In this document: piece by piece, positions 1 to 63,787 of the stretch | Layout: each line of letters opens with the position of its first letter | Numbering within the stretch: the first letter of the stretch is position 1 | NCBI GenBank assembly: GCA_016283195.1 | Contig: JAEEML010000167.1 | Location: forward strand, 688 to 64,687 | Length of the DNA: 64,000 bases | Reading direction: 5' to 3' | DNA from: Deltaproteobacteria bacterium | Lineage (GTDB): Bacteria > JAEEML01 | Made by a program: the position numbers and the translations under genes | Notes under the pieces: generated by a model | What the model was told of the DNA's origin: nothing | Databases searched by the model: none | Seen by the model: the letters and a program-made list of their open reading frames with translations, nothing else

Positions 1-140
1 CTTTTGGTTAGCATGCGGCGCTGCCCGTTTTTATGCGACACTAGTTCTTGACTTTACTCTTTTTTTCTTTTTCGGGGAAAACCTCCGCTACTTTAGTTAT
101 CCATCACCTCACAAAATATATGTAAATTCAATTATATATG

Positions 141-170: not shown

Positions 171-238
171 CCCCATGTGAAAAACAGGCTCTAATGGCAG
201 TGGTGCGGTGGGGCGGCTGCCCGGCCTGGGCTTGGTGG

Positions 239-301
239 CTATTTGCCTTCGATGGTGGCGACCTCTTCGGGGGTTAGGGCGTAGAGTTGATAGAGCAGGG
301 C
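239..301 (-). pseudogene. Relic of a second Type IIG RM gene 3' end (encodes ...ALLYQLYALTPEEVATIEGK*)
   Basis: The reverse-complement translation matches the C-terminus of the adjacent 1224-aa enzyme (…LVYALYGLTEEEIATIEGK*). The flanking nucleotides ggtggctatttgccttcgatggtggcga (235-262) are near-identical to those at 437-464. No upstream ORF is attached to it. Confidence 0.7.
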
Positions 302-317
302 ATTTATTTGCCAGGGG

Positions 318-385
318 CCCTCACCCCGACAAGTACCGAAAATTATTAGCATCTCGCCCCTCTCCATTTTTACAAATAGAGAGGG
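318..385. repeat. Inverted copy of the ~50-bp repeat unit plus hairpin element copy 2
   Basis: ccctcaccccgacaagtaccgaaaattattagcatctcgcccctctccatttttacaaatagagaggg is the reverse complement of the unit that repeats in tandem at 4495-4665. Confidence 0.7.
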
Positions 386-441
386 CTCATCTATGTGAAT
401 TTATATGTGTTTCTAAAGTATCATGAGCTCTGGCGGGGTGG

Positions 442-16269: not shown

Positions 16270-16523
16270 ATAGCCCAGCCCAAAATTCCCAGCGCCCCCA
16301 GGGCTAATAAAATGGCCACCAAGCGGATAAAGAAATCGCTCTCGAAAAAGCCGCTATTATCATCGTAAGGATCAATGCAATCATCATTATCGTAGGAAGA
16401 GTGGGGATTGTCCTGCTGAGGGATAAAAGGTGGCGGATCCGGCCTATAAGTCTGCCTGACCAGCCCGGCTACTTTATCGCGCGTGGCGATGATAATTTCT
16501 TCTTCGCTTGGCACTTCTTCCAT
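16242..16523 (-). CDS. Small hypothetical protein with C-terminal TM helix
   Basis: 93 aa, acidic N-terminal part, hydrophobic C-terminus. Overlaps both neighbours and sits in an apparent operon with the GT39-like gene. Confidence 0.3.
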   Translation of the reverse strand: MEEVPSEEEIIIATRDKVAGLVRQTYRPDPPPFIPQQDNPHSSYDNDDCIDPYDDNSGFFESDFFIRLVAILLALGALGILGWAIWYAKVGAG

Positions 16524-40669: not shown

Positions 40670-41347
40670 ATGAGTTTAGAGGGGCAAATTAGTGATCTTG
40701 AAAGCATGATGAGCGAGGCTATGCTGGATGATGGCGGCAGCTCTCTGCCTGATAATCCCTTGGATTTGGCGGTGAGCGAAATAGCCGATTGGCCATCGGT
40801 AGCCGAAGTTTTGGCTTTTTATTCGCAGGGCTTGCCTCTTTCCATAAAAAATGAGCTCATAGCTCTTTGCCAGGAGTTGACTAAAAGTGCCGGTCCTAAT
40901 CCCAATCTGGCGGTGCAGGTAGTGCGTTTCCCCGTTTTGGGCGGCTACACCACCAAAGAGGCTGTTTCGGTGATAAAAGCCGCTCCGAGGCGGCGCAGCG
41001 GGCTCACCAGAGATATTTCCGGCGTTAGTCTGCAAGCCAGAGCGCAAAAGCCCAAAGCTTCTGCCCCAAAAGTTGCGGGCGGGGCGATGCCTGTACCCAG
41101 CACTAAAAAACTGGCTCAGCTGGAAAAACAAGCCGGCGCACTCTATGTTACCTGGAAAAAAGAAGAAGAGGGCAGTCCACGCTTTTTGGCACTTAAACCG
41201 CAAGTTTTACATGCCTGGAAACAATTGGAAGCGGGGCTCCAAAGCCGCCTGGAATACCTCAAAAAAAACAGTGGGGAAAATAGCCGTGCGATTTTGGGCT
41301 ATCAGAAGGCACTCCATAAAGTTTCGGCCATTCTTAATAGTTTTTAA
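40670..41347 (+). CDS. Hypothetical protein
   Basis: The ATG at 40670 follows SD GGAGG. 225 aa, no recognisable motif. Confidence 0.4.
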   Translation: MSLEGQISDLESMMSEAMLDDGGSSLPDNPLDLAVSEIADWPSVAEVLAFYSQGLPLSIKNELIALCQELTKSAGPNPNLAVQVVRFPVLGGYTTKEAVSVIKAAPRRRSGLTRDISGVSLQARAQKPKASAPKVAGGAMPVPSTKKLAQLEKQAGALYVTWKKEEEGSPRFLALKPQVLHAWKQLEAGLQSRLEYLKKNSGENSRAILGYQKALHKVSAILNSF

Positions 41348-42825
41348 CCAAGTTCGGCTTCCAAAAGCGGAGAAAGCGCCGAGAAGAGCTTGGCGGCTTT
41401 GTCCTTAAATTTGGTGCTTTTGATATAATATTCTTGAAAATCATGGGAAAAAATTCTTTCCGGATGCGCCTTGCAACCGGAGAGGCTCATAATCATCAGC
41501 GGCGAGGCGTAAATTTTTTGCTGCACAGGATCTTCCTGGATAAAGCTGTAAAAATGCTTTATAGCTGCCTGGTAATCGCCGTTTTCGGCCAGACACTGGG
41601 CTATAGCCATGCTGGGAGTATAAATGGCTCCGCTGATCATGGTGCGCATAAAGGGCACAAAGACACGCACTACCGGCACTTTTAAAAGCGGATGGGTTAT
41701 ATCTATATAACTTACTTCATAGCCGGCCTCCGCCAGATTTTTAACCAGGTAAAGCAAATCGTCGCAGAAATCACCAGATGCCTTATTTTCTAATGAATCA
41801 AAAGAGATAGTTTCTTTGGCTGCCTCCAGCATGTGGCGGTTGTAGGTGGCGAGAAAGCCGCTGTGGTTTTGCGGCAGGGAGGCGGCGATGCGTTCAAAAG
41901 CCGTGCCGCACTCTGCAAACTCCTTTTTCTTTATGGAAAGGCTCTCAAAATATTCCGAAAGCGCGCGAATGAGCGCCATTTTGGGGTTTAAGTGGCAGCC
42001 CTGGCCAACTCCCTTGGAAATAATAGAATCGCTGTTATTATTAATGACACCGGCAACACAAAAAGTTGGTATGCCAAGTTTCGCGCCTATTTCTAAAATA
42101 GTCAGGCTAATGCCGGCTTCTTCCGCGGCGCGCAGAATATTTAAAATATCCGTATCGTTAATAGAGGCAGGGTCTATCCGGCGCGGCGGCCGTTCATCCA
42201 TAAAGAGGCGGCAAACATTTTCCCGCTCTATTACTTCGCAAATGCCCTGCACCAGAGCCTCCGGCAATTGGTTGCCGGCGGCCAGGCCGTTGGAGGTATA
42301 AGTTATATTGTGCCAAGTAATAGGATATGCTTCAAGAGTGCTTGTGGTTAAATTTTGAGCACTTATCCATTTTTGCGGCATGGCGAGAATTTCCGGCAGC
42401 AGGTGCTCATAAGCCGCTTTATCCTTTAAATTGGCCAAAAAATAATCGGCACTTAGTAGAGGCCCTTTTTCCTCTGATAGCTCGTTATAGCTGGCTATGC
42501 GGTAGCCCGGAGCATCCCGGTAGGCAAAATTGAGCCAGCTTAAGCGCTCGGCGAGTTCCATAAGTCCGCTGGCCTCAGCTTGCGCTTCTTCCAAGCCTTT
42601 GCCGCTGGCCGCAAAGCCGTCAAAAGAAGTTTTAAATGAATAGCTGCCGTTTATAACCGGCTGGCGTTTTTCCGATATAAGTTGTTTGCCGGCCGAAAGA
42701 AGAGGCAGAGTTTCCTTGATGCGGGCTACTGTTTCCGCCGGCGGGCGGCATTTATCCAAAGAGCCGTTAAATGTTTTGGGGCAACTTTTAAATTGCTTTA
42801 AAAAGGAGAAATTAGTATTCATCAT
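41344..42825 (-). CDS. YcaO-like domain protein with C-terminal helical/TPR-like region
   Basis: N-terminal …RPPAETVARIKETL…SGKGLEEAQAEASGLMELAERLS, then SNGLAAGNQLPEALVQGICEVIERENV, then …YIDITHPLLKVPVVRVFVPFM. These are the three YcaO signature blocks in canonical order. Confidence 0.55.
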   Translation of the reverse strand: MMNTNFSFLKQFKSCPKTFNGSLDKCRPPAETVARIKETLPLLSAGKQLISEKRQPVINGSYSFKTSFDGFAASGKGLEEAQAEASGLMELAERLSWLNFAYRDAPGYRIASYNELSEEKGPLLSADYFLANLKDKAAYEHLLPEILAMPQKWISAQNLTTSTLEAYPITWHNITYTSNGLAAGNQLPEALVQGICEVIERENVCRLFMDERPPRRIDPASINDTDILNILRAAEEAGISLTILEIGAKLGIPTFCVAGVINNNSDSIISKGVGQGCHLNPKMALIRALSEYFESLSIKKKEFAECGTAFERIAASLPQNHSGFLATYNRHMLEAAKETISFDSLENKASGDFCDDLLYLVKNLAEAGYEVSYIDITHPLLKVPVVRVFVPFMRTMISGAIYTPSMAIAQCLAENGDYQAAIKHFYSFIQEDPVQQKIYASPLMIMSLSGCKAHPERIFSHDFQEYYIKSTKFKDKAAKLFSALSPLLEAELG

Positions 42826-42906
42826 GCGGCCTCTATCAGTTACGACCAAGGCCGTAAGTATAGCAGTTAGAATTGGCAGAGGCTACTGTTTTTGAGGAGA
42901 ATTTGG

Positions 42907-45900
42907 ATGGTTAAGTCCTTTGTTGGGCTGGATATAGGTGCGGAAAATATTAAAATAGCTATTCTTGATGAGGATGATGATAATCGGCTTAATATTTCTT
43001 CATGTGAGCTGATTCCGCATTTTAAAAACCCCCAGACAGTGCTTAAAAAATGGTTTTTAGAGCATAAAAATACCACTTTTGCCGGAGCGGCTGTTACCGG
43101 GCGGCTGGCTCGTATTTGCAATACTCAAAATGTGCCGGTTTCTGTGGCTCTTGCTGCCGGTGTGCGCCATATTTATCCGCAAAAAGAAGAAGTTACGGTT
43201 ATCAGTATCGGTAGCCGCGGTTTTGGTGTTTTGGAAATACATAAAGACCGGGAAAATTGGCAGGAAAATAGCCGCTGTTCGCAGGGAACGGGCAATTTTT
43301 TGCGCCAACTTACGGAGCGTTTTTCTCTGAGTGTAGAAGAAGCGAGTAGCCTTGTGGCCGATGTAAAAGAGGCGGCCAAGCTTTCCGGCCGCTGCCCGGT
43401 TATTCTAAAAACCGATATGACCCATTTGGCCAATAAAGGGGAGAGCAAAGAGCGCATTTTGGCCGGTCTTTTTGATGCCGTGTGTGAAAATGTCCTGGCG
43501 CTCGTAAAGGTGCGCCTGGCGCCCAAAGAGGTGCTTTTGGCCGGTGGGGTGAGCAAAGCGCCGCGTATCCAAAAGACGCTCGCGGCCATGTTGGCCGGGC
43601 GGGGAATGACACTTTTGCCGGTAAGTGAAGAATATCAACTATTTTATGAAGCTCTCGGAGCCGCTTTATGTGCCCAAAAGCATGGCTATGAAGCGCCGCC
43701 GGATGTGAGCTCTTTATTCAAACCGGCGGAGAATAGCGGATTTTGGTCTTTGGCGCCGCTAAGCCAATTTACAGCTAAAGTAAAGCGCCTGGATTACCCC
43801 ATGCCCGGCCTGTTAGAGCAGGAAAAACTGGTGCTGGGCTTTGATATCGGTTCAACCGGCGCCAAACTTCTGGCCTATGATATAGCACAGGAAAAGCCGC
43901 TTTGGAGCTCATATCTACCAACCAACGGTGATCCATTCGGGGCCTCTATAGCCCTTTTAAAAAACTTTTTGCAAGCCGGCGGCCGGAGCGAAAAAGTGCT
44001 GGGCTTTGGCGTCACCGGCTCCGGTCGGGAGATAGTCGGCTCGCTGCTTAAAATCGCTTACGGCGAAGAATATGTATATATTATCAATGAGATAGCCGCG
44101 CATGCCACTGGCGCCTCCTATTATGATGACGCTGTGGATACCATCTTTGAAATAGGTGGTCAGGATGCCAAATATATTCGCCTTGATCATGGGCAGATTT
44201 TTGATGCCGCCATGAATGAGGCTTGCAGCGCCGGCACCGGCTCGTTTTTGGAAGAGCAGGGTGTGCGCCTGGCCGGTATAGCCAGTATTAGCGATATGAA
44301 TGAAGCTGCTCTTAAAGCTGCTTCTTCTGTCTCTTTGGGGCAGCACTGCTCGGTATTTATGGCCGAAAATATAGATGCTGCCATCGCGGACGGCTTTGAT
44401 ACCGGGGCGATTATCAGCGGCCTTTACGATTCGGTAATTCAAAATTATTTAAACAGAGTGAAGGGCAACCGCTCAATTGGCAAGCGCATATTTTGCCAGG
44501 GAATGCCCTTTGCCGCTGCAGCTTTGGCCGCCGCTGTGGCCAGGCGCACGGAATGTGAAGTGGTGGTGCCGCCGCATCCGGGAGTTATCGGCTGCCTGGG
44601 CATTGCCATTCTGGCCGGCCGCGCTTTTGCCGGATCGCAGCATAATCCGCTTGATTTGCAAAAGATTCTTTCGGCCAAGCTGGTGCTGAAAGATAATTTT
44701 ATCTGTAATTCCACCAAAGGGTGCGGTGAGCCGGGCAACCATTGCCGTATAGACAGATTAAAAATTCTCCTGGAAAATAAAGAGCAGCGCTTTATCTGGG
44801 GCGGCAGTTGCTCGCTCTATGACCGCGGCACCAGAGAGCGCAAGTTGCCCGATTTGGCACCCGATCCCTTTAGAGAGCGCTCTAGGCTCCTAAATGATGA
44901 CAGTGAATTTTTAAGGCGCGGCCGGCCGCTGGTGGCTATGAGCAGCGAATTTATTTTGAGCAACCTCTACCCATTTTTTAAAACTTTTATCTATGAGCTG
45001 GGTTTTGATTTGCTCCTTAGTCCGCCCGGCGATACGGCAGCCTTAAAACGCGGCATCGAGGAGGCCAGTGTTCCCTATTGTGCGCCGCTGCAACTTTATA
45101 GCGGCGTGATGTCTGCTCTTTTGGAAAAGCAGCCGGATTACCTTTTTCTGCCGATGCTACGCGATATTCCGCGCGCTGAGAGCGAGCCTTATTCCACCGC
45201 TTGTCCGCTTTCCCAGGCCAGTGCTGCGCTTTTGAAATTTACTTTGCCGCCAAGCGAAAAAACAGTTCTATTGCGGCCGGTTATCGATATGGGTACCGGC
45301 AATCTCGAATCGCCAATGTTTATAAATAGTTGCGAGCGTTTGGCCGCCAGCCTCGGCGCCGATAAAAAAGCGGCTTTAGCGGCCTATAAAGCGGCGCTTG
45401 TTAAACAAAAAAGCTTTTACGCCTCCTGTAAGGCAATAGGGCAAAAAGCTCTCGAATATGCGGCTAAAGAGCACATAATTCCGGTGGTTGTTATTGGCCG
45501 TTCTTATACTATTTATAACAATATACTTAACAGCAATGTGCCCAATATATTGCGCGCTCAAGGGGCTCTGGCCATACCGGTTGATTGCTATCCGGTAAAT
45601 GATGATACGCCTGTTTTTGCTGATATTTTCTGGGGTTATAGCCAGCAGGCGCTTAGAGCAGCCCACCAAATACGCCGCCACAAGGGAGTTTATAGCGTTT
45701 TTTGCTCCAATTATTCCTGCGGGCCGGATAGCTTTACTTTGCAATTTTTTACTTACATTATGGAGAACAAGCCCTGCGTTATTATAGAAACCGACGGCCA
45801 TAGCGGCGATGCCGGCACTAAAACCAGGCTTGAGGCCTTTTTAAGCTGTGTGGAGGCCGAAGAAGAGGCTGAGAGAATAGCCGCCACAGCGCGAAAAACT

Positions 45901-47196
45901 AACGATTTTACAGAGATATTGGCAAATAATATTTCTCTGCCCGCTACCATTACCCAGAAGAAAACACTGCTTATCCCCCGCATGGGGCATAGCGCCGAAG
46001 TGGCTGCCGCCGGTCTCCGCGGGGAAGGGCTTACAGCTGAGTGTCTGCCGGTGCCGACTCGCGAAACTTTGGAGCTGGGGCGTAAATACACCTCCGGCAA
46101 AGAATGCCTGCCGATGATTCTGACTCTGGGCGGCATATTGGAGCGCGCCGCCAAGGGGCCTTCTGCGGAATTTCTGGCCTTTTTAATGCCGCTGGCTCAT
46201 GGCCCCTGCCGCCTGGGCTGTTACAATATGCTGGATAAAATTGTTTTTGAAAAACTTAACTTAAAGCAAAAAATCAGCATTGTAAGTCCGCCTGATTATA
46301 ACTATTTTGAGGGACTTAGTACCGGAGCGGCCATTAAAATTCTGGCCGGTTTTGTCACCGGCGATTTGCTCTGGGATATGCTTTACCACACGCGGCCGGT
46401 TGAAAAGGAAGCCGGAGCGGCGCAAAAAATATTCTCCGCGGCTTTTGCTAAATTGATCACCATGATGGAGAGCGAAAAAGCGCCGGATATAGTTCACGCG
46501 CTGGCAACTGTGCAATTTGGCAATATTTTCGGCCTTACCGATCTTTTGGCGGAAACGGCAGACAAGCTAGCGGAAATAAAGGATTTTAGTAAAAAATTGC
46601 CCACAGTGGCCGTGACCGGTGAGATATATGTGCGCTGCGATCCGTTTGCCAATAACCATGTGATTGAAGAGCTGGAAAAGCGCGGCATCAGAGTAAAATT
46701 TTCGGCTTTCAGCGAGTGGATGGAATACATAGATTGGGCCAAAAGGCGTCGCTACGGCGAGGGCCACCTGCCAACTCCTTATAATCCCTTTACCGCCCGC
46801 ATAAGCAGCGCGGTACAAAAAACAATATTCAGCCGCTTATATGCCGTTCCGGCTAAAAAATTGCACTGGGAAGAGCGCACCGCTGTTACCGATTCTCTTG
46901 CGGCTGCCGCTCCCTATATGCCGAATGAGCTTTACGGCGAAACCTGCCTCACCATTGGCGGGCCAACATTTGATTATCGCAAGGGAGAAGTCCTGGGCGT
47001 GGTCAGTGTAGGGCCGCTGGAATGTATGCCTTCCAAAATAGCCGAAGCGGCTTTAAAAGAAGTGGAAAAAGCCGAGCGCTTAATAGCTATCTCGCTGCAA
47101 TTAAACGGTGATCCCGTTGACCCAGCAATTTTGGATGCCTTTGCATATCGGGTAAAAGAGCGTTTTTCCTGCTTAGGAGAAAATAGGGAAGGTTAA
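42907..47196 (+). CDS. CoA-substrate-specific enzyme activase fusion: two BadF/BadG/BcrA/BcrD (ASKHA) ATPase domains plus DUF2229-type C-terminal domain
   Basis: Two FVGLDIG/LGFDIGSTGAK ATPase N-termini, then a C-terminal …CSNYSCGPDSFTLQFF…IIETDGHSGDAGT… block. ATG at 42907 with GAGGAG SD. 1430 aa. Confidence 0.6.
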   Translation: MVKSFVGLDIGAENIKIAILDEDDDNRLNISSCELIPHFKNPQTVLKKWFLEHKNTTFAGAAVTGRLARICNTQNVPVSVALAAGVRHIYPQKEEVTVISIGSRGFGVLEIHKDRENWQENSRCSQGTGNFLRQLTERFSLSVEEASSLVADVKEAAKLSGRCPVILKTDMTHLANKGESKERILAGLFDAVCENVLALVKVRLAPKEVLLAGGVSKAPRIQKTLAAMLAGRGMTLLPVSEEYQLFYEALGAALCAQKHGYEAPPDVSSLFKPAENSGFWSLAPLSQFTAKVKRLDYPMPGLLEQEKLVLGFDIGSTGAKLLAYDIAQEKPLWSSYLPTNGDPFGASIALLKNFLQAGGRSEKVLGFGVTGSGREIVGSLLKIAYGEEYVYIINEIAAHATGASYYDDAVDTIFEIGGQDAKYIRLDHGQIFDAAMNEACSAGTGSFLEEQGVRLAGIASISDMNEAALKAASSVSLGQHCSVFMAENIDAAIADGFDTGAIISGLYDSVIQNYLNRVKGNRSIGKRIFCQGMPFAAAALAAAVARRTECEVVVPPHPGVIGCLGIAILAGRAFAGSQHNPLDLQKILSAKLVLKDNFICNSTKGCGEPGNHCRIDRLKILLENKEQRFIWGGSCSLYDRGTRERKLPDLAPDPFRERSRLLNDDSEFLRRGRPLVAMSSEFILSNLYPFFKTFIYELGFDLLLSPPGDTAALKRGIEEASVPYCAPLQLYSGVMSALLEKQPDYLFLPMLRDIPRAESEPYSTACPLSQASAALLKFTLPPSEKTVLLRPVIDMGTGNLESPMFINSCERLAASLGADKKAALAAYKAALVKQKSFYASCKAIGQKALEYAAKEHIIPVVVIGRSYTIYNNILNSNVPNILRAQGALAIPVDCYPVNDDTPVFADIFWGYSQQALRAAHQIRRHKGVYSVFCSNYSCGPDSFTLQFFTYIMENKPCVIIETDGHSGDAGTKTRLEAFLSCVEAEEEAERIAATARKTNDFTEILANNISLPATITQKKTLLIPRMGHSAEVAAAGLRGEGLTAECLPVPTRETLELGRKYTSGKECLPMILTLGGILERAAKGPSAEFLAFLMPLAHGPCRLGCYNMLDKIVFEKLNLKQKISIVSPPDYNYFEGLSTGAAIKILAGFVTGDLLWDMLYHTRPVEKEAGAAQKIFSAAFAKLITMMESEKAPDIVHALATVQFGNIFGLTDLLAETADKLAEIKDFSKKLPTVAVTGEIYVRCDPFANNHVIEELEKRGIRVKFSAFSEWMEYIDWAKRRRYGEGHLPTPYNPFTARISSAVQKTIFSRLYAVPAKKLHWEERTAVTDSLAAAAPYMPNELYGETCLTIGGPTFDYRKGEVLGVVSVGPLECMPSKIAEAALKEVEKAERLIAISLQLNGDPVDPAILDAFAYRVKERFSCLGENREG

Positions 47197-49546: not shown

Positions 49547-52030
49547 ATGAGACAGCTTAAAATTTTAACAGCCATGTTGATATTGTCAACGCTGGCTACC
49601 GGTTGCAAGCCGCCGGATCCCAAGAAAAATCGGCCGGATCCCGTGCTCAGCCTGATAGTCGCCAGCTCGGATGGAGATATTTCCAGCTCCAATGCCAGTA
49701 TGGCAGCTTTCCGCGATACAACCATCGCTTTGCGCGTGCTGGCTATGCGCAGTGTGCCCGAAGGTGCCGATGCCGATCTTTACGAAGAAGACGAACTCGG
49801 TCCGGCTAAAAATGAGACTGTCAAATGGGAAGTTGTCGGCAATGCCAAAACCTTTCTCAAATTGAGTGATGAGGGCGGTATTACCACAACCGATAGCGAT
49901 GGTTTTACGATGATGGAGGTGAATATCTCTCCGGAAGCGCGTAATTCCAATTATCAGGTGAGTGCTTCCATCAATGAGGATATCGGTGTTACCTTCTCTT
50001 TAAAAGTTAAAGACGTAGAAAAAAATATTGTCATAGAAGGCAGTAATTCCCGCCGTTTGGGTATGGCTCGTTCCGATATGATTCGTGTTTATGTGCGCAA
50101 TCAGGTCGGCGGCCCCATAGCCAACGAAAAAGTTACTTTGAATGTTATCGACGGCCAGCAAAAATGGGATTCTGCTCACATGGGGCTTAGGCCGGATCCG
50201 TTTACCTTGGACAGCAAAGATGAAAACGGCACTGTTGAAAACGGAAGAGATGTAAAACTCTCTGCCGAATTAATAACCAATGCCCAGGGCCTCGCCACTG
50301 TTTATTTCTTTACCGGTGTGGCTACAGGTATTCATGAGATAAAAGTCAGCGTGGATGGCGTGGAAGAGCTTTCTACACACACTATAACTTATGAAATTGT
50401 CGATTCCACTAGCGGCGCTTGCGAAGTAAACGAAGATTGTTCTTATAGCGAAATTTGCTTGGCTAACCATAAATGCGGTGAGCCGCCTATTCCCTGCGAA
50501 GAGCACGAGAAACCGACAGCCGAAAATCCGCCGTGTCCTGCCGGTTTGGTGTGTAGCGCCAAAGGCCAGGATCGTGTTTGTGAATTTGTCTCTTGCTCCG
50601 GTGATGATTCTTGTAATGCCGGTAATGGTGGTTCTACAGCGTGTGAAGGCGATTACCAGTGTGCTGCCGGTTCTTATTGCTCTCCCGAAGGAGTTTGCAA
50701 AGGCCAAGTTTGTTTTGCTTCCAAGCAAGCCGGCAATTACTGTATTTACCATTATGCTTGTGAAAAAGATGAAGATTGCCCCTCTGTGCACAAATGTGAT
50801 ACCGAGCAGCATTACTGTATTCCATGGGAATTGCCTGATAGCCCTCTGGTTGTAAAGGGAACCTGGTACACCAAATATCACATGGATTTAACTGAAATTT
50901 TAGGTATTTTTGGCCCTGGTGGCCCGATTGGCGAGGTTATCACCTTCTTGCAACTTGTTACCGGCCAGGGGCTGGCTGCCAAAATGACCGAGCAATTGGG
51001 AAATGGTATAATAGCCGCTATCGGCGCCGGTATTCTCCAATCGGCTATACAGAGTGTGGTTAAAGAATATGTGCCACCGTGGATTACCAATTTAATCAAT
51101 GTGCTTGGCGATTTTATCAACCTGTTTAACGATATGCGAGCCAATGGCGCCATGGTTGTTTCGCAGCCGATGCAGAGTTTGAATCTCAACGGTAAGATAG
51201 TTCAGCGCCCCGGTACTTATCTCTATGCCGGTGAAAGATGGGAAAATGTGATTCTCTATCTGCCTTCGATGCCGGCTTGCAAGGGTATGGGCCGCAACTC
51301 GCCGAACTGGCCTGACTGCGCTGCTGTTAATGTGGGTGTTGACGGGCGCGTATCGAATGAATGGAGCGATTCTGATATCCGCATCGGTGTTTACAACAAC
51401 TCTTTTGAAGGCGAATATATCTATGGTATTGATGATGGCGAGCCGACAAATGATGGTGCCAAAGTTCTCTTTAAAGGGCGTAAAACCGAGATGGAAACTC
51501 AGGCGCTTATTATAAATATGCTCGATTTGATTGCTCAGACAGTATCCGCTTCCAGCACTCTCAGCTACAAATCCTTTAGAGAGATGCTCTGTTCATCAAA
51601 AGCGGATGCCAGCGGTAAAGTTGATGTTTGTACCCGCGAAAGTTTGGGTGGTCTCATGTGCGATGGGCTTGGTACCGGCATTTCCAAATTGTCTTGTAAG
51701 ATTGCCGCTGCCGCCTGCCCGTTTGAAGCCAATATCAAGAGCGTAACCACCACTATATGTGAGCCGGCTGCCAGCGCTGCTGCCACTATTTTTGAGCAAA
51801 AAATGAAAACCATGGCTCTTGATCTCAATATTACCGACATGGAATGTGAGGCTCCTATCGAAGCAGATCCCAGTGCTGATTATCGCGCCGGTTCTATGGG
51901 GGTTGACGGCTCGCGAGTTAATGGTACCTTTAAAGCTAAAGCCAGAATAGAAGAAAGTGGCGGTAGGCCGATAAGCGGTACCTGGGGTGGTCATCGCGAT
52001 GCCAATGTTATGAAGAATCTGGAAGATTAA
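49547..52030 (+). CDS. Large lipoprotein with Ig-like beta regions and a Cys-rich repeat module
   Basis: Lipobox LATGC. Residues ~290-420 carry about 30 Cys in CxxxxDC…C…C repeats. 827 aa. Confidence 0.5.
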   Translation: MRQLKILTAMLILSTLATGCKPPDPKKNRPDPVLSLIVASSDGDISSSNASMAAFRDTTIALRVLAMRSVPEGADADLYEEDELGPAKNETVKWEVVGNAKTFLKLSDEGGITTTDSDGFTMMEVNISPEARNSNYQVSASINEDIGVTFSLKVKDVEKNIVIEGSNSRRLGMARSDMIRVYVRNQVGGPIANEKVTLNVIDGQQKWDSAHMGLRPDPFTLDSKDENGTVENGRDVKLSAELITNAQGLATVYFFTGVATGIHEIKVSVDGVEELSTHTITYEIVDSTSGACEVNEDCSYSEICLANHKCGEPPIPCEEHEKPTAENPPCPAGLVCSAKGQDRVCEFVSCSGDDSCNAGNGGSTACEGDYQCAAGSYCSPEGVCKGQVCFASKQAGNYCIYHYACEKDEDCPSVHKCDTEQHYCIPWELPDSPLVVKGTWYTKYHMDLTEILGIFGPGGPIGEVITFLQLVTGQGLAAKMTEQLGNGIIAAIGAGILQSAIQSVVKEYVPPWITNLINVLGDFINLFNDMRANGAMVVSQPMQSLNLNGKIVQRPGTYLYAGERWENVILYLPSMPACKGMGRNSPNWPDCAAVNVGVDGRVSNEWSDSDIRIGVYNNSFEGEYIYGIDDGEPTNDGAKVLFKGRKTEMETQALIINMLDLIAQTVSASSTLSYKSFREMLCSSKADASGKVDVCTRESLGGLMCDGLGTGISKLSCKIAAAACPFEANIKSVTTTICEPAASAAATIFEQKMKTMALDLNITDMECEAPIEADPSADYRAGSMGVDGSRVNGTFKAKARIEESGGRPISGTWGGHRDANVMKNLED

Positions 52031-56139: not shown

Positions 56140-57156
56140 CTAAATCTGTAGCGTCATGGCTAAATTATATTGGCCGGCGGCACGAGCCAGATTGTGCTCA
56201 TGGGCTGAGGCGAATTTGCTGCTATCCCAAGCGAAATTCTGCGGAATAAAAGCTTCTTTGGCAAAACGGGCGGCGAGTTCCAGGGAAATGGTGCGCACAG
56301 CCTGCAGCAGAAAGGGCTTCAGCGGAATCAAAGCATCTTTGTTACTTTGCTCATAGCCGGTTAAAAAAGCTTCCCAGTATTCAAATTTAAAAGCGGCATT
56401 TTCGGCATCTTCGGCCGGGGCGGCAAAAGAGCGCAGGGCATCGGCCAGTTCCGTGATTAGCGCGCGCCGGGCAAAAGTGTCCAAATCCACCATCGTGAGG
56501 GCCTTGGTTTCATGGTAGAGAAAGTTGGCTATTTTGGGATCTCCGTGGAGAGTGCCTATAGAAAATTTTTTAAAATCAAGGAGATTATCTTCCTCTTTTA
56601 AAATGGCGGCGGCCAGTTTTTTTAGATCTGCCAGGCCGCTAAAATCAGGTGTAGCCCCAAGGACCTTTTTAAGCTCACCAAAATGCCAGGGACTATCATG
56701 CACATGCTCGCGTATATGCTGAAAATTATAATTAAAATCAGATAAAACCCGGTGGTACTCACCAAGTAATCTCCCAGCGCTTTCGGCATGTAGGGCAGTG
56801 GGAGTCGCTAAAAATGTTTGGCCGGGAATATAAGTAAGTGCCCGCCAAATAAAGCCCTCATTATCGCTGACAAAAAGCTGATTATCAGCTGTTTTTATGA
56901 GCTTTGGTGTTGTTAAACCATGGGCTTTTAAGTGAGCGGTAACAGCCTCTATATCGTTAAGAACAGCAGCTTTAAAAATTGGGCTTAGGCGCTGGAGAAT
57001 AAACGGCCTGGTGCCCGGCGGAGTCAGCAGAAATGTTTGGTTGATGAGGCCCCCGGCCAGTTTTTGGCAGGTCGTCTCACGGCACCGGTAGGCCGCGCAA
57101 ATTTCCGGCGCAATAGGCGGGGTGGCGGAAAGCCCAGATAAAGCAGCTTTATTCAT
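56140..57156 (-). CDS. Phosphotransferase-family (APH/choline-kinase-like) protein
   Basis: Brenner-type HGDPKIANFL and DLD motifs. The start ATG at 57156 overlaps the upstream gene's stop (ATGAATAA). Confidence 0.55.
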   Translation of the reverse strand: MNKAALSGLSATPPIAPEICAAYRCRETTCQKLAGGLINQTFLLTPPGTRPFILQRLSPIFKAAVLNDIEAVTAHLKAHGLTTPKLIKTADNQLFVSDNEGFIWRALTYIPGQTFLATPTALHAESAGRLLGEYHRVLSDFNYNFQHIREHVHDSPWHFGELKKVLGATPDFSGLADLKKLAAAILKEEDNLLDFKKFSIGTLHGDPKIANFLYHETKALTMVDLDTFARRALITELADALRSFAAPAEDAENAAFKFEYWEAFLTGYEQSNKDALIPLKPFLLQAVRTISLELAARFAKEAFIPQNFAWDSSKFASAHEHNLARAAGQYNLAMTLQI

Positions 57157-60100
57157 TATTGGTGCTGATGGAAATTCCACCGGAAATGCGGGTGGAAATC
57201 TCACCGGGACGTGTGAGATCTTCGAGCTCGATAGTGAGGTTGGTGCCGGCCGGTATGCCGGTTAGCCCCATGGCCGAGAGATCGATAGCCGGCAGAGGAA
57301 TATTAGTGAGCACCGAAGAGAGCAGGTTGGGCAGAATTTGGCTCAAAACCCGGTTTAAGAGGGCGGAGAATTGTTCTAAATTGGCGGTGTCGCCGTTTAC
57401 TTCCAAAACATCGGTGATAATGCGGGCCGGGGAAGTTTCCGAGAGTTTAAAGCCAAAGGCGCCGTCATTTACCGCCAGAGAGCCGGGCAAGAATACATGA
57501 GCATAGAGCTTAACTTTGAGCGGCGGGAGCCCGGCCTGGCCGGCCAGAGCACCTATATCGAGATTAGCATTTATAAGCAAATTGCCGAGGCCCAGCTCAA
57601 TTTCGCCGCTTTTGCTGCCGGGCATGATAACCGGCGGTAATTCGGCTTTCATGTTGAGGCCCAGGCCGTTAATGCCGCTGGCGGCTACCAGGTCGCCAAG
57701 GTCCATATTGAGCACGCCGGCATACCAGACAGCCCAGAGAATTTGGTTGATGAAATCATCGGAAAGTCTAATAGCCATGCCGCTGTCAAGGCCAGTTTCG
57801 GCAGGCGGTGTGGCCATGTGGCCCGGTACGCCGGTGGAACTTGTTATGCCGGCATTTGAGGGATAAAACTGAGTAGCCATGCCAATAATGCCGTAGGGTT
57901 TGCTTCCGGCTTTGAAAGAGATATCCGACATATAAGAATCGAGAGCCAAAGAGACGCTGAAGGGCGGCGGTAACTCAAAGGAAGTACCGATGACAAAGCC
58001 GGCCAGGAAATCTTCCAGCAGCGGAGGAATTTGATCATTGATAACACCACCGATTAGGTCCTCTATTAGCCCCTCGAAGATGGAAACCAGCAGGTTTGTT
58101 ATGCCAGAACCGATGGTGGCTAAAATACCAGATATTACACTGTCACTAGATGGATCAATTGAAACATTTAAGTTATCAAATTCAATATTGGTTTTTGTTA
58201 TTGTAACTTTTGGCTTATTATTCACTATGGTGATATTTAAATCAGTACTGAAATCTAGGCTATCCATGATTACACTGCCACCTATACCCCAGTGAGTGTT
58301 GGTGGCAAAACCAAGTACACAAGAAGTGTTGTCATAATAAATTTTTAGAGGAACTCTGAGGCTGTCAGTACTGTCATTTTTACCGATATAGGCTTTTAAG
58401 CGAATACCGCCATCGATAATTGAAACCTGACTGATTTTTAGTGATTCTATGTAGATATTACCTGATTTACGTATGCCGAATCCATTGTCGCCTGAGCTAG
58501 GAGAATAAGAACCGCTTGAAAAAGTGCATGATTTTTTAGCGCATGGTCCGCGTGGTTTGAGCCAGCCTGTGGTGGGCCAATTGCTGTCTGGGCTTGAATC
58601 GCAACCGGAGCGGTCATTAGGATCACCCATGGCATCGAGAGCTGTGTTAATCATCGGACCAAGTTGCGAGCCAATCATGTTTTCAATCATGGAAGCAATA
58701 TCATCATAACATTCCTCATCAGTGCATTTACCGTTAGTGATAACGCCGCGGTTGCCGTCATCGAGCATTTCCTGTGAAAGTACCAGGCCCAGGCCGTTAT
58801 TGATGTGGGCTTCCGGTAAGGCTTCGGTGGCTTTGGGATAATACTTGCCGGCTCTTAAATAGGCTCTTGTTTGCGAGTGCTTATTGCCGCAGGCATCTTC
58901 GGCGCTGGCACTTATAAGATTGAGACCAAAGCGGCTTTGCTGAGTTTTGGAGAGATTTTTCTTTTCACCGGCGTCGGCGGTGATGGAAGAGCCGTCGAAA
59001 ATAAGGGTGGCCGGGCCGCTTAATGGCTCAGAAATAGTGGCTGTGATACCCATATTGTAGATGCTATCGTTGCCTCTGGTGACTACGCTGCCGCTTCCGG
59101 GATTAGTGGTTATAATTGGCGCTGTTTGATCAACTATTACATTGAGGCTGTATTCCAAATCGGAACCGGCATCGAGTGTACCCTCGGGATCAAGCGGAGT
59201 TACAGTTACTGTATAGAGACCGTCGCGCAAAAATACGGGCAGGTTATCAGCGCTGAAAGAGAGATAATCGGTGTCGCCATCAATGGGGTTATCCTGCTTT
59301 ATTACTTCATAATTTAATGGCCAGGGTGTGATGTTGCCAACTTCGTCATAAGTCTTACAACCGATGTTTAACGGGCGCCCGGCAGGGGCACAGTTAACTT
59401 CGTTAAAAGCACAGGTTAATTTTACCGGCAAGCCGGGGAGAACAGAGACAACAGCCGGGCTATTATCGGCTATCCCGCCGGGAATATAAGCAAAAATCAT
59501 AATTTCTCCAGCAGTTTCGGCTGTCAGCATGTTGCCGGTGAAGCTGATGGAAGCTAATTGAGCCGGGTTTAACGGCATAAAAACAAATTGACATTCATTG
59601 CCGCTTAAAACATTGCCCGCGCTGTCTTTTACCAGGCAGCTTAGTTCGCTGCTCTCTATACTGGCTCTAAAAGAATCCGGAGTGGCAATTGTTTCAATAA
59701 TTGCCGGTTTTCCGGTACTTACAGTTAGCGTTTCGCCGGCACTTTCAAGGCCGTTATAGCTGCATTTAAGAATATAATCACCGGCTTTTAGAGCTGTTAT
59801 TTTATCCATATCGGCAATTATGGCGTCGGGGAAAATAAAGCTGACATCGGCACCATTTATAGAGATTTCATTATCAAAAGCGTCATAAGCGAGGCACTCT
59901 AAAGTAGTGTAATCGCCGGCAGTAATATTATTTTGTGCAGCTTTTACTTTTAATGTTTTGGCTGCGCCGGGAGTGACTGTCAGCCTGGCTTTGCCGGCAT
60001 CACAGCCGCTGGCTTTACAAGTGACAGTATAATCGCCGCTCTTATTTGGTGAGAGCTGACAGGTGCCGTCGGCACATTCCTGCGCAGCTTCATCCAGCAT

Positions 60101-61960
60101 AACCTGCCATTTTACATTGGCCGGAGTTTTTTCGCCGGTTAAGGCGCAGGTGACCGTGGTGCTTTCGCCAGCTTTAATGATTGGAGGGCTAAGCTTAGCG
60201 GTAGCGGCGCAGTAGCCGCCTATAGTCGGCATATTTATGGCTTCATCTGCCGGCTCGGAGGTGGCAGGCAGCTTGGAACTGCAAGAAGCAGCGGCCAGAG
60301 CAAGAAGAGCAAAAAGAGAATAAATACCGCGCTTTTTGAGCTTGCGACACAAGCTGGCTGCGGCGAGCAGTAAGAGGAACCATAGAGCCGGTGTACCGCC
60401 GCCGGCATTACAACCGGAATCCTCTTTGGCGGCGTTATCCTGGCTGGCGGTGGCTATAACGTCCGGGGCATCTTGTGTGGCAAGCTGCCTTGGGACAATT
60501 TCCGCTTTTAGCTCATAATTGGCCACCGGCTTAGGCAAAATAGCTCCCGGGGCTTCATCATAGAGCATTAATTCCACCTGGTAAGTGCCGGGGAAAGATG
60601 TAACAGTGAGGGGCAACTGCCAGCTATTTTGCGCTTTTTTAGAACGCAAAATATGCCAGGGCTGTTTGCCAAGACGGTAGGCGAGAGCTTTGCCGGCCTT
60701 GGGAGTGGTGACATTAATAATATCACCGGCCACCGCTTTTGAGGAGAGATAAGCAGCTCTTTTTAAGCTGGCTTTACCGGCGCCCGCTTCTTCGGTTCCC
60801 GCATCTTCAACATGACTGCTTTCGGCTGAGGAATTTTCTACTGCGGAGGCAGTGGCATAAAGAGTGAGCCAATTGCCCTGGCCGGGAATTTTGGTGCCCG
60901 GCTCGGTGCGTATTTCTTCGATACCCATTTGTAAGCCGATAGGTGCGATAAGTCCGTTCAGCATATTTTCTATATCTAAAGGTATAGTAATGCCATTTAA
61001 GAACTGGCCGCCGAGAGAATCAAGTATTTCAGGCAATAATTCCGCTATGTTACTATTGGGAAAGAGCTGATTGTAAGTTTCTTCTATGGTGACAAAATCT
61101 ATTTTATCTATGGCGATAGTCAGAGTATCGGCGGTGCGCAAAATGGAGAGGCCGGCGCCGATTTCCAGGCTAAGTTCCACCAGGCGCAGGGGGCGATCCG
61201 CAGTTAGCATATAAATAGAAATGGTGATAGCCGGAATAGATAAATTGAGGAGGTGCTCACCGGCGGCCATGTTGCCAAGAGTGATTTCCGGCCAGGCTTT
61301 AGGAGCAATTTCCAAATAAAGCGGGCTATTTCCGGCGCCTAAAACAGAGAGCTCCGGGATAAATAACGAAAGCAGGCCGGAAGTTAAAGCAAAGCCGCCG
61401 GCCAATTCGGAGAGAGATTCCGATGAAATAGACATGCAGGCAATACCGCCGTTTAAAAAGGCCCATAAGGCTTGCTGAATATTGCGCTCCGAGAGGGCAA
61501 TGGCGAGTTCATAGGGGCGGGCTGTTTGCCCGTCTATATCTTCTTTAACCAGATAGCCGCTAAATTCCGGCTTGGGGGCATCTTGGGGCAAAGCCGGAGC
61601 AGTGCCGAGAGGCATCATGCAGGACGCTGTATCGGTTGTGAGACCAAAATCCAAAGAAATACCGGCACTTGAAGCTGGCATCGTTGGCAGAGCTTCAATG
61701 CCGGAAGCAGCTATATCCACTCCGAGGTAGAGATCGGCAAAGGGAGTGCCTAAATTGCCGAGCGCTGTGCCCAGGTTAAAGGAGGTCTCCAGAGGCAAGG
61801 GAATAAGATTGCCAATTTGCGAGAAGAGCGGCGTGACATATTGATCAACAAGACCACCTACTAAATCGATTAGGAAATTTTCTAATAAACCGGAGAGGTT
61901 ACCAAGTATTTGTGTTAATAGGTCGGCCGTTTGACAGAGCTCCTGACAATCATGATCCAC
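57149..61960 (-). CDS. Giant cell-surface protein (bacterial Ig-like BIG2-type regions), with internal MYXO-CTERM-like motif followed by a lipobox-like segment
   Basis: 1603 aa from a GTG. Internal …SGCNAGGGTPALWFLLLLAAASLCRKLKKRG is followed at once by IYSLFALLALAAASCSS. BIG2-like TVTPGAAKTLKVKAAQNNITAGDYTTLECLAYD… repeats follow. Confidence 0.55.
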   Translation of the reverse strand: MDHDCQELCQTADLLTQILGNLSGLLENFLIDLVGGLVDQYVTPLFSQIGNLIPLPLETSFNLGTALGNLGTPFADLYLGVDIAASGIEALPTMPASSAGISLDFGLTTDTASCMMPLGTAPALPQDAPKPEFSGYLVKEDIDGQTARPYELAIALSERNIQQALWAFLNGGIACMSISSESLSELAGGFALTSGLLSLFIPELSVLGAGNSPLYLEIAPKAWPEITLGNMAAGEHLLNLSIPAITISIYMLTADRPLRLVELSLEIGAGLSILRTADTLTIAIDKIDFVTIEETYNQLFPNSNIAELLPEILDSLGGQFLNGITIPLDIENMLNGLIAPIGLQMGIEEIRTEPGTKIPGQGNWLTLYATASAVENSSAESSHVEDAGTEEAGAGKASLKRAAYLSSKAVAGDIINVTTPKAGKALAYRLGKQPWHILRSKKAQNSWQLPLTVTSFPGTYQVELMLYDEAPGAILPKPVANYELKAEIVPRQLATQDAPDVIATASQDNAAKEDSGCNAGGGTPALWFLLLLAAASLCRKLKKRGIYSLFALLALAAASCSSKLPATSEPADEAINMPTIGGYCAATAKLSPPIIKAGESTTVTCALTGEKTPANVKWQVMLDEAAQECADGTCQLSPNKSGDYTVTCKASGCDAGKARLTVTPGAAKTLKVKAAQNNITAGDYTTLECLAYDAFDNEISINGADVSFIFPDAIIADMDKITALKAGDYILKCSYNGLESAGETLTVSTGKPAIIETIATPDSFRASIESSELSCLVKDSAGNVLSGNECQFVFMPLNPAQLASISFTGNMLTAETAGEIMIFAYIPGGIADNSPAVVSVLPGLPVKLTCAFNEVNCAPAGRPLNIGCKTYDEVGNITPWPLNYEVIKQDNPIDGDTDYLSFSADNLPVFLRDGLYTVTVTPLDPEGTLDAGSDLEYSLNVIVDQTAPIITTNPGSGSVVTRGNDSIYNMGITATISEPLSGPATLIFDGSSITADAGEKKNLSKTQQSRFGLNLISASAEDACGNKHSQTRAYLRAGKYYPKATEALPEAHINNGLGLVLSQEMLDDGNRGVITNGKCTDEECYDDIASMIENMIGSQLGPMINTALDAMGDPNDRSGCDSSPDSNWPTTGWLKPRGPCAKKSCTFSSGSYSPSSGDNGFGIRKSGNIYIESLKISQVSIIDGGIRLKAYIGKNDSTDSLRVPLKIYYDNTSCVLGFATNTHWGIGGSVIMDSLDFSTDLNITIVNNKPKVTITKTNIEFDNLNVSIDPSSDSVISGILATIGSGITNLLVSIFEGLIEDLIGGVINDQIPPLLEDFLAGFVIGTSFELPPPFSVSLALDSYMSDISFKAGSKPYGIIGMATQFYPSNAGITSSTGVPGHMATPPAETGLDSGMAIRLSDDFINQILWAVWYAGVLNMDLGDLVAASGINGLGLNMKAELPPVIMPGSKSGEIELGLGNLLINANLDIGALAGQAGLPPLKVKLYAHVFLPGSLAVNDGAFGFKLSETSPARIITDVLEVNGDTANLEQFSALLNRVLSQILPNLLSSVLTNIPLPAIDLSAMGLTGIPAGTNLTIELEDLTRPGEISTRISGGISISTNNE

Positions 61961-62011
61961 ACAATAAGGATCAAAGCAAAGGCCCTTTGTGCCATCGCAC
62001 GGCGTGACTTG

Positions 62012-62848
62012 CTATTTGAGGAAAGAATCCACATCCGGGCCGATAAGAGAAATATCGCGTCTTTCGAGAGCGATATAGAGGCTGTGTCCGTCAACTACTT
62101 CGCGCGAGGCCAGAGCCACTTTTACGCCAACATGGTTTATTGTTATGGCGGCATCGGTTGAGCCATCGGTATTTACGCGGTTGCCAATCAGGCAAGCACC
62201 GGAAAGCCCCAGCATATCGCCAAGATCCAAGAAGGCGGCTATATCGGCGGAAATAGGCAATTTATCAATAGTTACTTCAAGCGCCAGGCCTTGGCCTTCA
62301 TCCGGCTCCACAAAGCGGATGCTGAGAGATTTTTCCAAATCTTCCAAATTTATAGAAATGCGAGAGGTGTGCGTGGGAATGGTGTCGGGGTTGTCATCGG
62401 TAGCACATTCTTCTGCAGAGAGTCCGTAAGCAATCAGGCTATCGGAAGCAGCATCGGAAGAGGCATCGGACGAACTATCGGTAAGGCCGTTATCGGAAGT
62501 GCTGTCACCCAGGCAACCATCGCGAAGGGCAAAGGAAATGGGCATATCGCTGGAGGCATCAAGGCTGACCCCGGGCAATTTTACGGAAATAGCCGGCTTG
62601 CCGCCTATATTCTCCATTGGGGCATATTGGCTGGCCAGGTTGAGCAAAACCGTTTTGAGGTTTGAGAGTAAGTGCTGGCCTAAAAAGAGTTGTAAGCCGG
62701 ACTTATTGATAGCGCCGTTGGAATCGGCAGCGGCCGGGTAGGGAACCACCGGTATTGCCGGCGAACTTTCGGCATCACCTTCGTTCTTGCAAGAGGTAAT
62801 AGTAATAAAAAGCAAAGCAACTATCGAAAATAATTTAAATTTTTTCAC
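62012..62848 (-). CDS. Lipoprotein with Ser/Asp-rich region, in frame with the giant ORF downstream
   Basis: Lipobox ITSCK. 278 aa. Its stop codon TAG (62012-62014) is in the same reading frame as the 57149..61960 ORF. Confidence 0.55.
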   Translation of the reverse strand: MKKFKLFSIVALLFITITSCKNEGDAESSPAIPVVPYPAAADSNGAINKSGLQLFLGQHLLSNLKTVLLNLASQYAPMENIGGKPAISVKLPGVSLDASSDMPISFALRDGCLGDSTSDNGLTDSSSDASSDAASDSLIAYGLSAEECATDDNPDTIPTHTSRISINLEDLEKSLSIRFVEPDEGQGLALEVTIDKLPISADIAAFLDLGDMLGLSGACLIGNRVNTDGSTDAAITINHVGVKVALASREVVDGHSLYIALERRDISLIGPDVDSFLK

Positions 62849-63019
62849 GATAACTCCATGGTGACAAGTTTATAAATCACCGCGAGTTTACTACCACAGA
62901 GTTGAGTTTCTTAAAAGTAAAAAAATGGTAACCAAAAGTATTCAGGCGGGTATGGTGAGTTTATTCTTGCAATTATCCCTCTCTTTTGTAGAGTAAATGC
63001 GCTTTTTGGCGAGGTGGCT

Positions 63020-63787
63020 ATGAAAGTGAATAAAGCGCTTCTTGTTGTTGGTTCTTTACTGATTTTTACTATGCTGGCCGAAACGGCCGGGGCCTACATT
63101 TTGCCGGCCTCGGCGCTGATAAAGCAGTATTTGAGAAACAGGGAAAAGTTGGCTCTTAAAGACATCACTCTCGATTTGGAACTCTCACTTTTTGAGGATA
63201 CAGCGGCGGCACAGAGTCTTGAAGGGCGTTTTTATTTTGCCGGCGGCGGGAATATGCGCCTCTCAGTAACCGAAGAAGTTGGTTCCACGGCGCTTTTGGT
63301 GGAACAAAAGCGGGTGCGCAAGACTAATGCTCCAAGTGGTGTTTTTGCCCTCTTTCCCCAAGAAGATCTTTTAGCTTCGCTCTTTTTCCCCGGCGGTGAC
63401 AAAGTTGAGCAGAGTATGAATATTGTGGCAGCGGCCATTAAACGCCTAAATATTAATATGGATAAGCAATCCTATCATCGTTACGACGGCAAAGTTGTGC
63501 AGATGATTGGCGGCAAGCCTTCAGAAAAAGATAGCAACCAATTATGGGTTTTTAAGGAGACTGGCATTCCGGCCTATTACCGCTTTACAGCTAATGGTTT
63601 TGATGGCCAAAAGCATAGTTATGAAGTGTTTCTCCGCGGCTATGATGAGCAAACGGTGGGGAACTGGTTCCCGGCTGAAGTAACTTATCGCTGCGACGGC
63701 AAGCACCTTGTTACTATAACTGTGCAAAAAGCTTCTAAAAATAATAACTTACCGGCTACCTTCTTTAGCACTCTGCAAGGTAATTAA
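63020..63787 (+). CDS. Secreted hypothetical protein
   Basis: Signal peptide MKVNKALLVVGSLLIFTMLAETAGA. The ATG at 63020 lies 4 nt after GAGGTGG. Confidence 0.45.
   Translation: MKVNKALLVVGSLLIFTMLAETAGAYILPASALIKQYLRNREKLALKDITLDLELSLFEDTAAAQSLEGRFYFAGGGNMRLSVTEEVGSTALLVEQKRVRKTNAPSGVFALFPQEDLLASLFFPGGDKVEQSMNIVAAAIKRLNINMDKQSYHRYDGKVVQMIGGKPSEKDSNQLWVFKETGIPAYYRFTANGFDGQKHSYEVFLRGYDEQTVGNWFPAEVTYRCDGKHLVTITVQKASKNNNLPATFFSTLQGN

Follow-up and report, generated by a model that had tools for sequence, protein, structure and literature searches.

What accounts for a single reading frame of 1,900 codons that is interrupted once by a stop codon and that carries, in its interior, a protein-sorting signal running directly into a lipoprotein signal? 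The frame lies on the minus strand of a 64,000-nucleotide stretch, hereafter the window, of contig JAEEML010000167.1 from a Deltaproteobacteria bacterium (assembly GCA_016283195.1). By definition and in annotation, sorting signals such as LPXTG, PEP-CTERM, GlyGly-CTERM, and MYXO-CTERM belong strictly at the C-terminus. The locus is, in our judgment, probably an in-frame, head-to-tail fusion of two surface-lipoprotein genes, here called part A and part B, with a separate one-base lesion in A. The combination of sorting signal and lipobox at their junction is a real and recurrent module; we found neither an internal module of this kind nor a lipoprotein polyprotein described in the open-access literature.

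Translation of the window gives one uninterrupted register from 62848 to 57149, closed by a TAA at 57151-57149 and containing one internal stop. An open reading frame (ORF) of 278 amino acids (aa) at 62012-62848 and another of 1,603 aa at 57149-61960 share this frame, with one TAG between them, as the original prediction had stated; the spacing from that TAG to the GTG at 61960 is 17 codons, QVTPCDGTKGLCFDPYC, and not the 16 counted earlier. The shorter ORF begins with a GTG at 62848-62846, with GGAG 7 nucleotides (nt) upstream. The longer was correctly described as starting at a GTG without a signal peptide of its own, and its listed start at 61960 has no Shine-Dalgarno sequence either. The 1,620 codons 3' of the TAG include no further stop or frameshift. 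Both ORFs occur in protein collections as separate entries, P0002 (source NCBI) and P0020, whereas searching for them by exact sequence matched no contig. A promoter and terminator scan of the locus found sites no more numerous than in shuffled sequence. The features on which the argument turns, with the evidence for each in parentheses, are these.

60326 to 62848, minus strand: part A, a predicted double-TULIP (BPI/LBP/CETP-like) lipoprotein gene of about 841 codons with one TAG (profile family, AlphaFold2, Foldseek).

62789 to 62848, minus strand: N-terminal signal peptidase II-type lipoprotein signal of A, (M)KKFKLFSIVALLFITITS/C (translation, upstream sequence).

62012 to 62014, minus strand: in-frame TAG at codon 279 of A, most likely a change of TTG (Leu) to TAG (alignment column, model, stop usage).

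60326 to 60418, minus strand: MYXO-CTERM-like sorting module of A, SGC NAGGGTP ALWFLLLLAAASLC RKLKKRG, with its Cys codon at 60412-60410 (alignment with the P0001 C-terminus, hidden Markov models, HMMs).

60281 to 60352, minus strand: lipoprotein-signal-like segment of B, with h-region IYSLFALLALAAA, lipobox AAS/C, and Cys codon at 60283-60281 (sequence, homolog N-termini).

57149 to 60283, minus strand: mature region of part B, about 1,045 aa plus the TAA, with immunoglobulin (Ig)-like repeats followed by a C-terminal module paralogous to A (P0003 alignment, hhalign).

Part A was taken as codons 1-841, ending at ...KKRG. Its N-terminal signal shows the elements of the PROSITE PS51257-type criteria for bacterial lipoproteins, namely a basic n-region, an h-region, and a lipobox Cys at residue 20 that is invariant across a 44-sequence family alignment. 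A word-indexed homology search with A returned one relative only, P0001 (897 aa, 26% identity), which has its own lipoprotein signal, aligns without a break over the TAG position, and terminates in ...NAGCSASGGSAAWACLLGAALLLRRRRRG followed by a stop; its last two residues align with the ...KKRG of the window, and the gene 3' of it encodes an ABC ATPase. It was an exhaustive, not word-indexed, search with a profile built from A and P0001 that exposed the family: 780 cluster representatives (50% identity) at E<=1e-3, with 98 at E<=1e-30. In many relatives of about 750-930 aa a single unbroken alignment covers the whole profile. The consensus of the 44 sequences has a lipobox at its start and a G-C, a hydrophobic stretch, and RRRR at its end, and among the full-length relatives inspected, P0001 and most others terminate in a tail of Cys, transmembrane (TM) segment, and RRRR. 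About half of the top matches of the family (P0001, P0005-P0152) have both an N-terminal lipobox and a MYXO-CTERM-like tail. By its signals, then, A would be anchored by an N-terminal lipid plus a MYXO-CTERM tail. Neither A nor its relatives, six of which were checked with Pfam at E<=0.01, fall within a Pfam or NCBIfam family, and the 780 cluster representatives form a large uncharacterized group of predicted BPI-like lipoproteins for which neither database has a model.

The relationship to BPI emerges from predicted structure. An AlphaFold2 model of A, made from the 44-sequence alignment, has a predicted local distance difference test score (pLDDT) of 80.7 and a predicted TM-score (pTM) of 0.78. 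Foldseek matches this model in the PDB to BPI (1ewf, E=1.7e-15, TM-score 0.65 on the BPI length), and further to LBP (4m4d), CETP (2obd), and the clostridial OrfX/P47 TULIP proteins. Because of these fold matches A is classed as a bacterial BPI-like double-TULIP protein, modeled with an extra C-terminal Ig-like domain; a double TULIP comprises two barrels, in each of which a curved sheet surrounds a long helix. At the level of sequence, the Pfam model LBP_BPI_CETP has no match to the window protein (E<=0.1) or to the six relatives (E<=0.01), and PDB chains give no sequence match to A. The fold likeness to BPI, LBP, and CETP covers about 640 aligned columns (Foldseek E=1.7e-15 to 3.5e-14), but identity to A is just 10-12%, and A differs in being bacterial, lipid-anchored at one or both ends, and, in the model, extended by its Ig-like domain. 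Lipid binding by A and, through the similarity described below, by B would be expected from the fold. The closest characterized bacterial analog of A that we found, by its description, is TipA of Bdellovibrio bacteriovorus, which belongs to a related predatory lineage; TipA is described as a BPI-like double TULIP encoded in one operon with its partner TipB (bioRxiv 10.1101/2025.09.09.675085). The passages of that preprint on which this comparison draws mention neither a MYXO-CTERM tail nor a lipobox join nor a fusion for TipA/TipB.

Part B has homologs of its own. P0003, a standalone protein of 1,058 aa, aligns over 93% of B starting from its own signal, MIYIRLTLSTLALLIWTG/C; this protein and two further relatives, at L003 and L005, each have a lipoprotein signal, and the genes upstream of them are unrelated to A. 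B-like lipoprotein genes are found at two loci of metagenome-assembled genomes, one from Bdellovibrionales and one from Myxococcota, where the upstream neighbor is nadD, not an A gene. The BIG2-like Ig repeats originally assigned to B amount to sub-threshold Pfam matches of Ig-like kind, to CarboxypepD_reg, Ig_3, and PKD, with Big_1 in the homolog P0003. Comparison of the B family with the A family by hhalign gives a probability of 97.2% and E=3.8e-11, with weaker signals from pairwise comparison, and by this profile evidence the C-terminal half of B is homologous to the A module and predicted to be TULIP-like. It is hhalign that supplies the fold assignment of B, its AlphaFold2 model (from a 2-sequence alignment) having a pLDDT of 33.

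The two parts meet about 517-545 residues into the 1,603-aa ORF, where SGCNAGGGTPALWFLLLLAAASLCRKLKKRG (60418-60326) is followed directly by IYSLFALLALAAASC (60325-60281). The frame runs on for about 1,060 codons beyond the sorting motif, which is thus not at the extreme C-terminus. Homologs of A stop exactly after the basic tail and homologs of B start exactly at the lipoprotein signal, which bears out the earlier suggestion of a former gene boundary that has become fused. The B segment (LALAAAS/C) can be aligned with the signals at the N-termini of the standalone P0003, L003, and L005 lipoproteins, and the basic cluster of the A tail doubles as its basic part. A possible in-frame TTG start for B at 60352-60350, without a Shine-Dalgarno sequence, gives MCRKLKKRGIYSLFALLALAAASC; the B signal is N-terminal only if this TTG is used. 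The motif on the A side has the tripartite MYXO-CTERM layout, with an invariant-Cys motif, a TM helix, and a basic cluster. It scores 15.6 bits against TIGR03382 (cut-off 15.85) and 14.1 bits against TIGR03901 (cut-off 20), within the range of the true C-terminal tails of the A family, which on MYXO-CTERM HMMs run from no match up to 21 bits. The agreement with a sorting-signal HMM that had been proposed as a check is therefore borderline for TIGR03382, present as a match and below the cut-off.

Direct reading of all three frames finds no stop within about 27 codons of the junction and none between SGCNAGGGTPALWFLLLLAAASLCRKLKKRG and IYSLFALLALAAASC, where the original prediction had already noted a run without a stop. 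Since no stop lies so near in any frame, a single indel or substitution cannot be hiding a normal gene boundary, and a stop or start concealed by one indel was rejected as a candidate. An assembly or sequencing artifact, with a stop and a start at this place in the true genome, is accordingly hard to credit and we consider it very improbable. The nearest homologs of A and of B are all separate genes, and within the family split and fused forms differ by a mere small indel at an ATGA or GTGA overlap, as would suit such an error; yet no single change restores both the stop of A and the start of B, the site has no repeat or homopolymer, and the same layout recurs in 24 other cluster representatives, one of which, P0108, is seen on four independent contigs.

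The in-frame TAG, by comparison, is ordinary. In the 43 relatives of the 44-sequence alignment the corresponding column holds Leu in 22, Val in 11, Ile in 7, Met in 2, and Phe in 1; it lies in a conserved strand, and five conserved Cys come directly after. Because the model of A is confidently folded through residue 279 (pLDDT 82-89 around that codon), the TAG cuts a domain rather than a linker. Independent homologs align continuously through the position. With Leu, Val, Ile, Met, or Phe in the column, TTG to TAG is the obvious single change, and since the other 1,620 codons are free of lesions the change would be recent, a polymorphism or a base error. The TAG is thus most likely a nonsense mutation or base error one substitution away from TTG, not recoding, in line with one of the options first offered. 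As assembled, it truncates A at residue 278, and the locus is either freshly inactivated or carrying a base error. The accompanying notion of one giant ancestral lipoprotein of about 1,900 aa gives way to an A gene of about 841 aa and a separate B gene.

Programmed readthrough, the other option first offered, gained no support. That recoding of the TAG (readthrough, suppression, or pyrrolysine) serves to make a full-length protein of about 1,900 aa is scarcely believable, for although the TAG is the sole stop in 1,900 codons and the remaining frame is intact, four other long ORFs in the window terminate with TAG, relatives carry Leu, Val, or Ile at the position, the profile search found no A relative with a stop there, and no recoding signal was seen. 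Programmed recoding would be marked by relatives with a recoded residue or stop and by rarity of TAG as a terminator; neither was found. The 40 long ORFs of the window end in TAA (31), TAG (5, this one included), and TGA (4), and reassignment of a stop codon was rejected on the ground that all three serve as terminators. An assembly-wide excess of in-frame stops was likewise rejected, other same-frame ORF pairs being ordinary neighboring genes. The context of the stop is AAA TAG CAA GTC (62017-62006, minus strand). A UAG CAA resembles the leaky context of plant viruses; that is a eukaryotic rule and is not counted as evidence here.

The junction is the unusual element, and it recurs. We scanned 152 sequences for the order Cys motif, hydrophobic stretch, basic cluster, hydrophobic stretch, [GAS]C. 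Every A-family member longer than 1,200 aa among them carries the join, and altogether it is found in 24 cluster representatives besides the window, counting one member of 979 aa and P0117, which was recognized by eye. The layout in these relatives is G-C, a first TM segment (TM1), R3-5, a second (TM2), and [GAS]C, followed by 460-655 residues; in P0108 it reads ...ASG/CATSAD/GAPGLWGLLLMVGLLL/RRR/WLLLLLPLVGC/DD.... The two hydrophobic segments of the 24 are separated by 2-13 residues, mostly 3-6 and usually RRR-RRRRR. Several internal modules score above curated cut-offs (15.85 and 20 bits) of the MYXO-CTERM models: 25.6 and 23.8 bits for P0108, 22.6 for P0139, and 17.2 for P0054. Four contigs carry the fused P0108 ORF in identical form, the three listed coming from three different samples, and the ORF has in-frame ATG and GTG codons inside TM1. 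The downstream parts of the 24 fused relatives are mutually homologous (Cys-rich, then propeller-like) and unrelated to B of the window. The 31 best BLASTP matches of window A, its own two ORFs excepted, are all standalone, and on a rough neighbor-joining tree window A lies apart from the fused clade. From the unrelated partners, the standalone best matches, and the tree position, it follows that the window fusion is an independent event.

Two smaller observations concern these same relatives. Over its first 686 residues P0138 (926 aa) shares 79% identity with the fused P0116, after which it turns Arg/Ala/Pro-rich, as is typical when high-GC DNA is translated out of frame; a frameshift in this copy, or an error of assembly close to the hairpin, is the probable cause. 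The residues after the lipobox Cys, in fused proteins and split partners both, are very often D, or G/A followed by D/E (CDD, CGD, CED, CAD), and this pattern may be a sorting or retention signal for the lipoproteins concerned.

Close to the fused proteins stand sister genes that are split at the same point. Seven proteins (P0100, P0102, P0113, P0143, P0123, P0140, and P0064), 47-60% identical to fused proteins, end right after the basic cluster. At two split loci, L010 and L011, the stop lies in a 4-nt overlap with the next gene, whose product begins with a lipoprotein signal. The overlap at L010 is ...cgg cgc cgATGAgg..., with downstream signal MRSALALGLVALLG/CEDK (2338-2400 of that locus); at L011 it is ...gcGTGAgg..., with downstream signal (V)RRSLAALALLGVAA/CAND (2561-2620). 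From exactly the lipobox Cys onward, the L011 neighbor shares 65.6% identity with the downstream half of fused P0125. Given the 4-nt overlap of stop and start, a frame-shifting indel turns such a coupled gene pair into one ORF, or back again. Fused and split forms interleave on the tree, with about 15 changes of state by Fitch parsimony, a rough figure in which fragments are included. This makes at least 25 diverged proteins with a MYXO-CTERM-type signal in mid-ORF, directly 5' of a lipoprotein signal, an arrangement that alternates with pairs of separate genes.

In the known system, a MYXO-CTERM signal places its Cys motif outside the membrane, followed by a TM helix and an Arg-rich cytoplasmic tail, and is cleaved by the myxosortase MrtX once the Cys has, presumably, been lipidated (PMC11980579). 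Like such proteins, for example TraA of Myxococcus xanthus, part A has the tripartite signal (S-G-C, TM helix, basic cluster) together with an N-terminal signal peptide, and A relatives have the signal at a true C-terminus. What sets the window and the 24 relatives apart is the internal position of the signal, which runs without a stop into a lipoprotein signal and another large protein; in the window, moreover, the basic cluster is Lys-rich (RKLKKR).

A lipoprotein signal mirrors MYXO-CTERM, with its basic n-region inside, its h-region in the membrane, and its lipobox Cys outside. Loss of the A stop and the B start would leave the basic tail of A serving also as the n-region of the B signal, and the product would form a membrane hairpin of TM1, RKLKKRG, and TM2, the last ending in the lipobox Cys. 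The arrangement of TM1, basic loop, and TM2 conforms to the positive-inside rule. In the mechanism that we propose, the N-terminal signal would export A; TM1 would stop transfer, the basic loop remaining cytoplasmic; TM2 would restart export, now of B; Lgt and signal peptidase II would act on the second signal, cutting before the lipobox Cys and freeing B as a lipoprotein; and a protease of the myxosortase type would trim A at the Cys motif. Since the precursor would yield the same two products as separate genes, the fusion would be tolerated and recurrent, with both signatures kept. The membrane topology and both cleavages are what we infer, and the full model of a doubly cleaved lipoprotein polyprotein is put forward tentatively. 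The wider statement, that bacteria of the Myxococcota and Bdellovibrionota make polyproteins that are cut into two lipid-anchored proteins at 1:1, and that lineages toggle repeatedly by small frame-shifting indels between a gene pair with a 4-nt overlap and one fused ORF, is equally a possibility rather than an expectation. The idea in the original prediction of a design for two anchored products gains strong comparative backing from the 24 relatives and the split sisters, with the processing itself a matter of deduction.

Two other accounts bear on what the hairpin does. B might be made from the internal TTG at 60352-60350, with read-on from A an irrelevant or minor by-product. This account, which we think unlikely although less so than the others considered, draws on the canonical lipoprotein signal MCRKLKKRGIYSLFALLALAAASC that the TTG would provide, on the standalone B homologs, on the in-frame ATG/GTG within TM1 of P0108, and on the fact that, with the TAG present, it is the sole route to expression of B here. 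The TTG nevertheless has no Shine-Dalgarno sequence, which many genes of the window have, the GTG of A among them; there is no significant promoter signal; and the 24 diverged fusions keep their 2-13-residue spacing without a stop despite many in-frame length changes. Alternatively the hairpin might be a permanent double-pass anchor in the inner membrane, uncut, tethering two periplasmic lipid-binding modules. The topology suits such an anchor too, but a plain anchor would need neither of the two signatures: in every case the second segment closes with a lipobox [GAS]C, after which a small or acidic residue (G, D, or E, for example) is frequent, and it matches the separate lipoprotein signals of the split sisters, and the first retains the G-C signature and passes MYXO-CTERM HMMs. 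We hold a permanent anchor to be decidedly improbable.

Several points count against the explanation favored here, a fusion whose precursor would be cut into two lipoproteins. With the TAG in place, the fused precursor is not producible from the window as it stands. Because the TTG at 60352 supplies B with a usable signal, B is translatable by itself and the read-on from A may be incidental. The motif of the window lies just under both of the curated MYXO-CTERM cut-offs. No Pfam match to CPBP (myxosortase), exosortase, or rhombosortase was found among window ORFs of at least 150 aa, and neither a metagenome scan nor a scan of GTDB representatives turned up close relatives of this organism, the relatives that were found pointing to Myxococcota or Bdellovibrionota. 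Fused P0108 and P0116 are metagenomic, and since fused and split forms differ by a frame-shifting indel alone, some of these states are perhaps assembly errors.

Alternating stop-transfer and internal signal segments, with cuts by signal peptidase, are familiar from the structural polyproteins of flaviviruses and alphaviruses. As there, the TM segment closing one ectodomain gives way to a second, signal-like one that restarts translocation, with a cut on the far side of the membrane. The viral systems differ in operating in a eukaryotic host, with signal peptidase I and no lipid anchors; the enzymes proposed here are signal peptidase II and a sortase of the CPBP family. Among existing models, NCBIfam NF058595, a "lipo-invert putative C-terminal anchoring domain", gives weak matches over both hydrophobic segments in the window junction (15.5 bits), P0058 (16.7 bits), and P0139 (17.7 bits), against a cut-off of 37 bits. 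It may describe a related idea, but what it models is a C-terminal tail rather than a connection to another large protein; the open-access literature yielded no paper describing it.

If the joined proteins are processed as proposed, they would provide a natural in vivo test of signal topology, with the Cys motif outside and the basic tail inside, a simple and nearly neutral route of fusion and fission among secreted proteins, and a means of enforcing 1:1 output of two surface lipoproteins. A myxosortase, were the polyprotein model true, would be able to act on a signal that is not C-terminal when translated. For annotation the effect is that fused ORFs are called one protein, with their internal signals ignored or mislabeled.

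The chromosomal neighborhood in the window includes gyrB, clpP, tatC, fabH, miaA, and divIVA, and the G+C content (GC) of the window is about 48%. An APH-family phosphotransferase/kinase gene has its longest ORF at 56140-57204 (minus strand), which shares 56 nt with the 3' end of part B; the true start of the gene is probably further downstream. For five ORFs, at 32772-34526, 34609-36342, 16523-18331, 49547-52030, and 63014-63787 (584, 577, 602, 827, and 257 aa), Pfam gave nothing significant, the 827-aa ORF showing a faint Big_1 match at most. A gene resembling type IIG restriction-modification enzymes (442-4116, minus strand; 1,224 aa) matches Eco57I, N6_Mtase, TaqI_C, DUF7149, and DUF7814. 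It lies in a stretch, positions 1-4000, with a GC of 38-39%, against about 48% elsewhere in the window, and because of this difference the stretch is probably a horizontally acquired island. A YcaO cyclodehydratase-family gene (41344-42849, minus strand) diverges from the adjoining gene at 42892-47196 (plus strand), whose 1,434-aa product combines a BcrAD/BadFG-type ATPase with DUF2229, "CoA enzyme activase"; this YcaO and BcrAD/BadFG pair hints at an anaerobic lifestyle.

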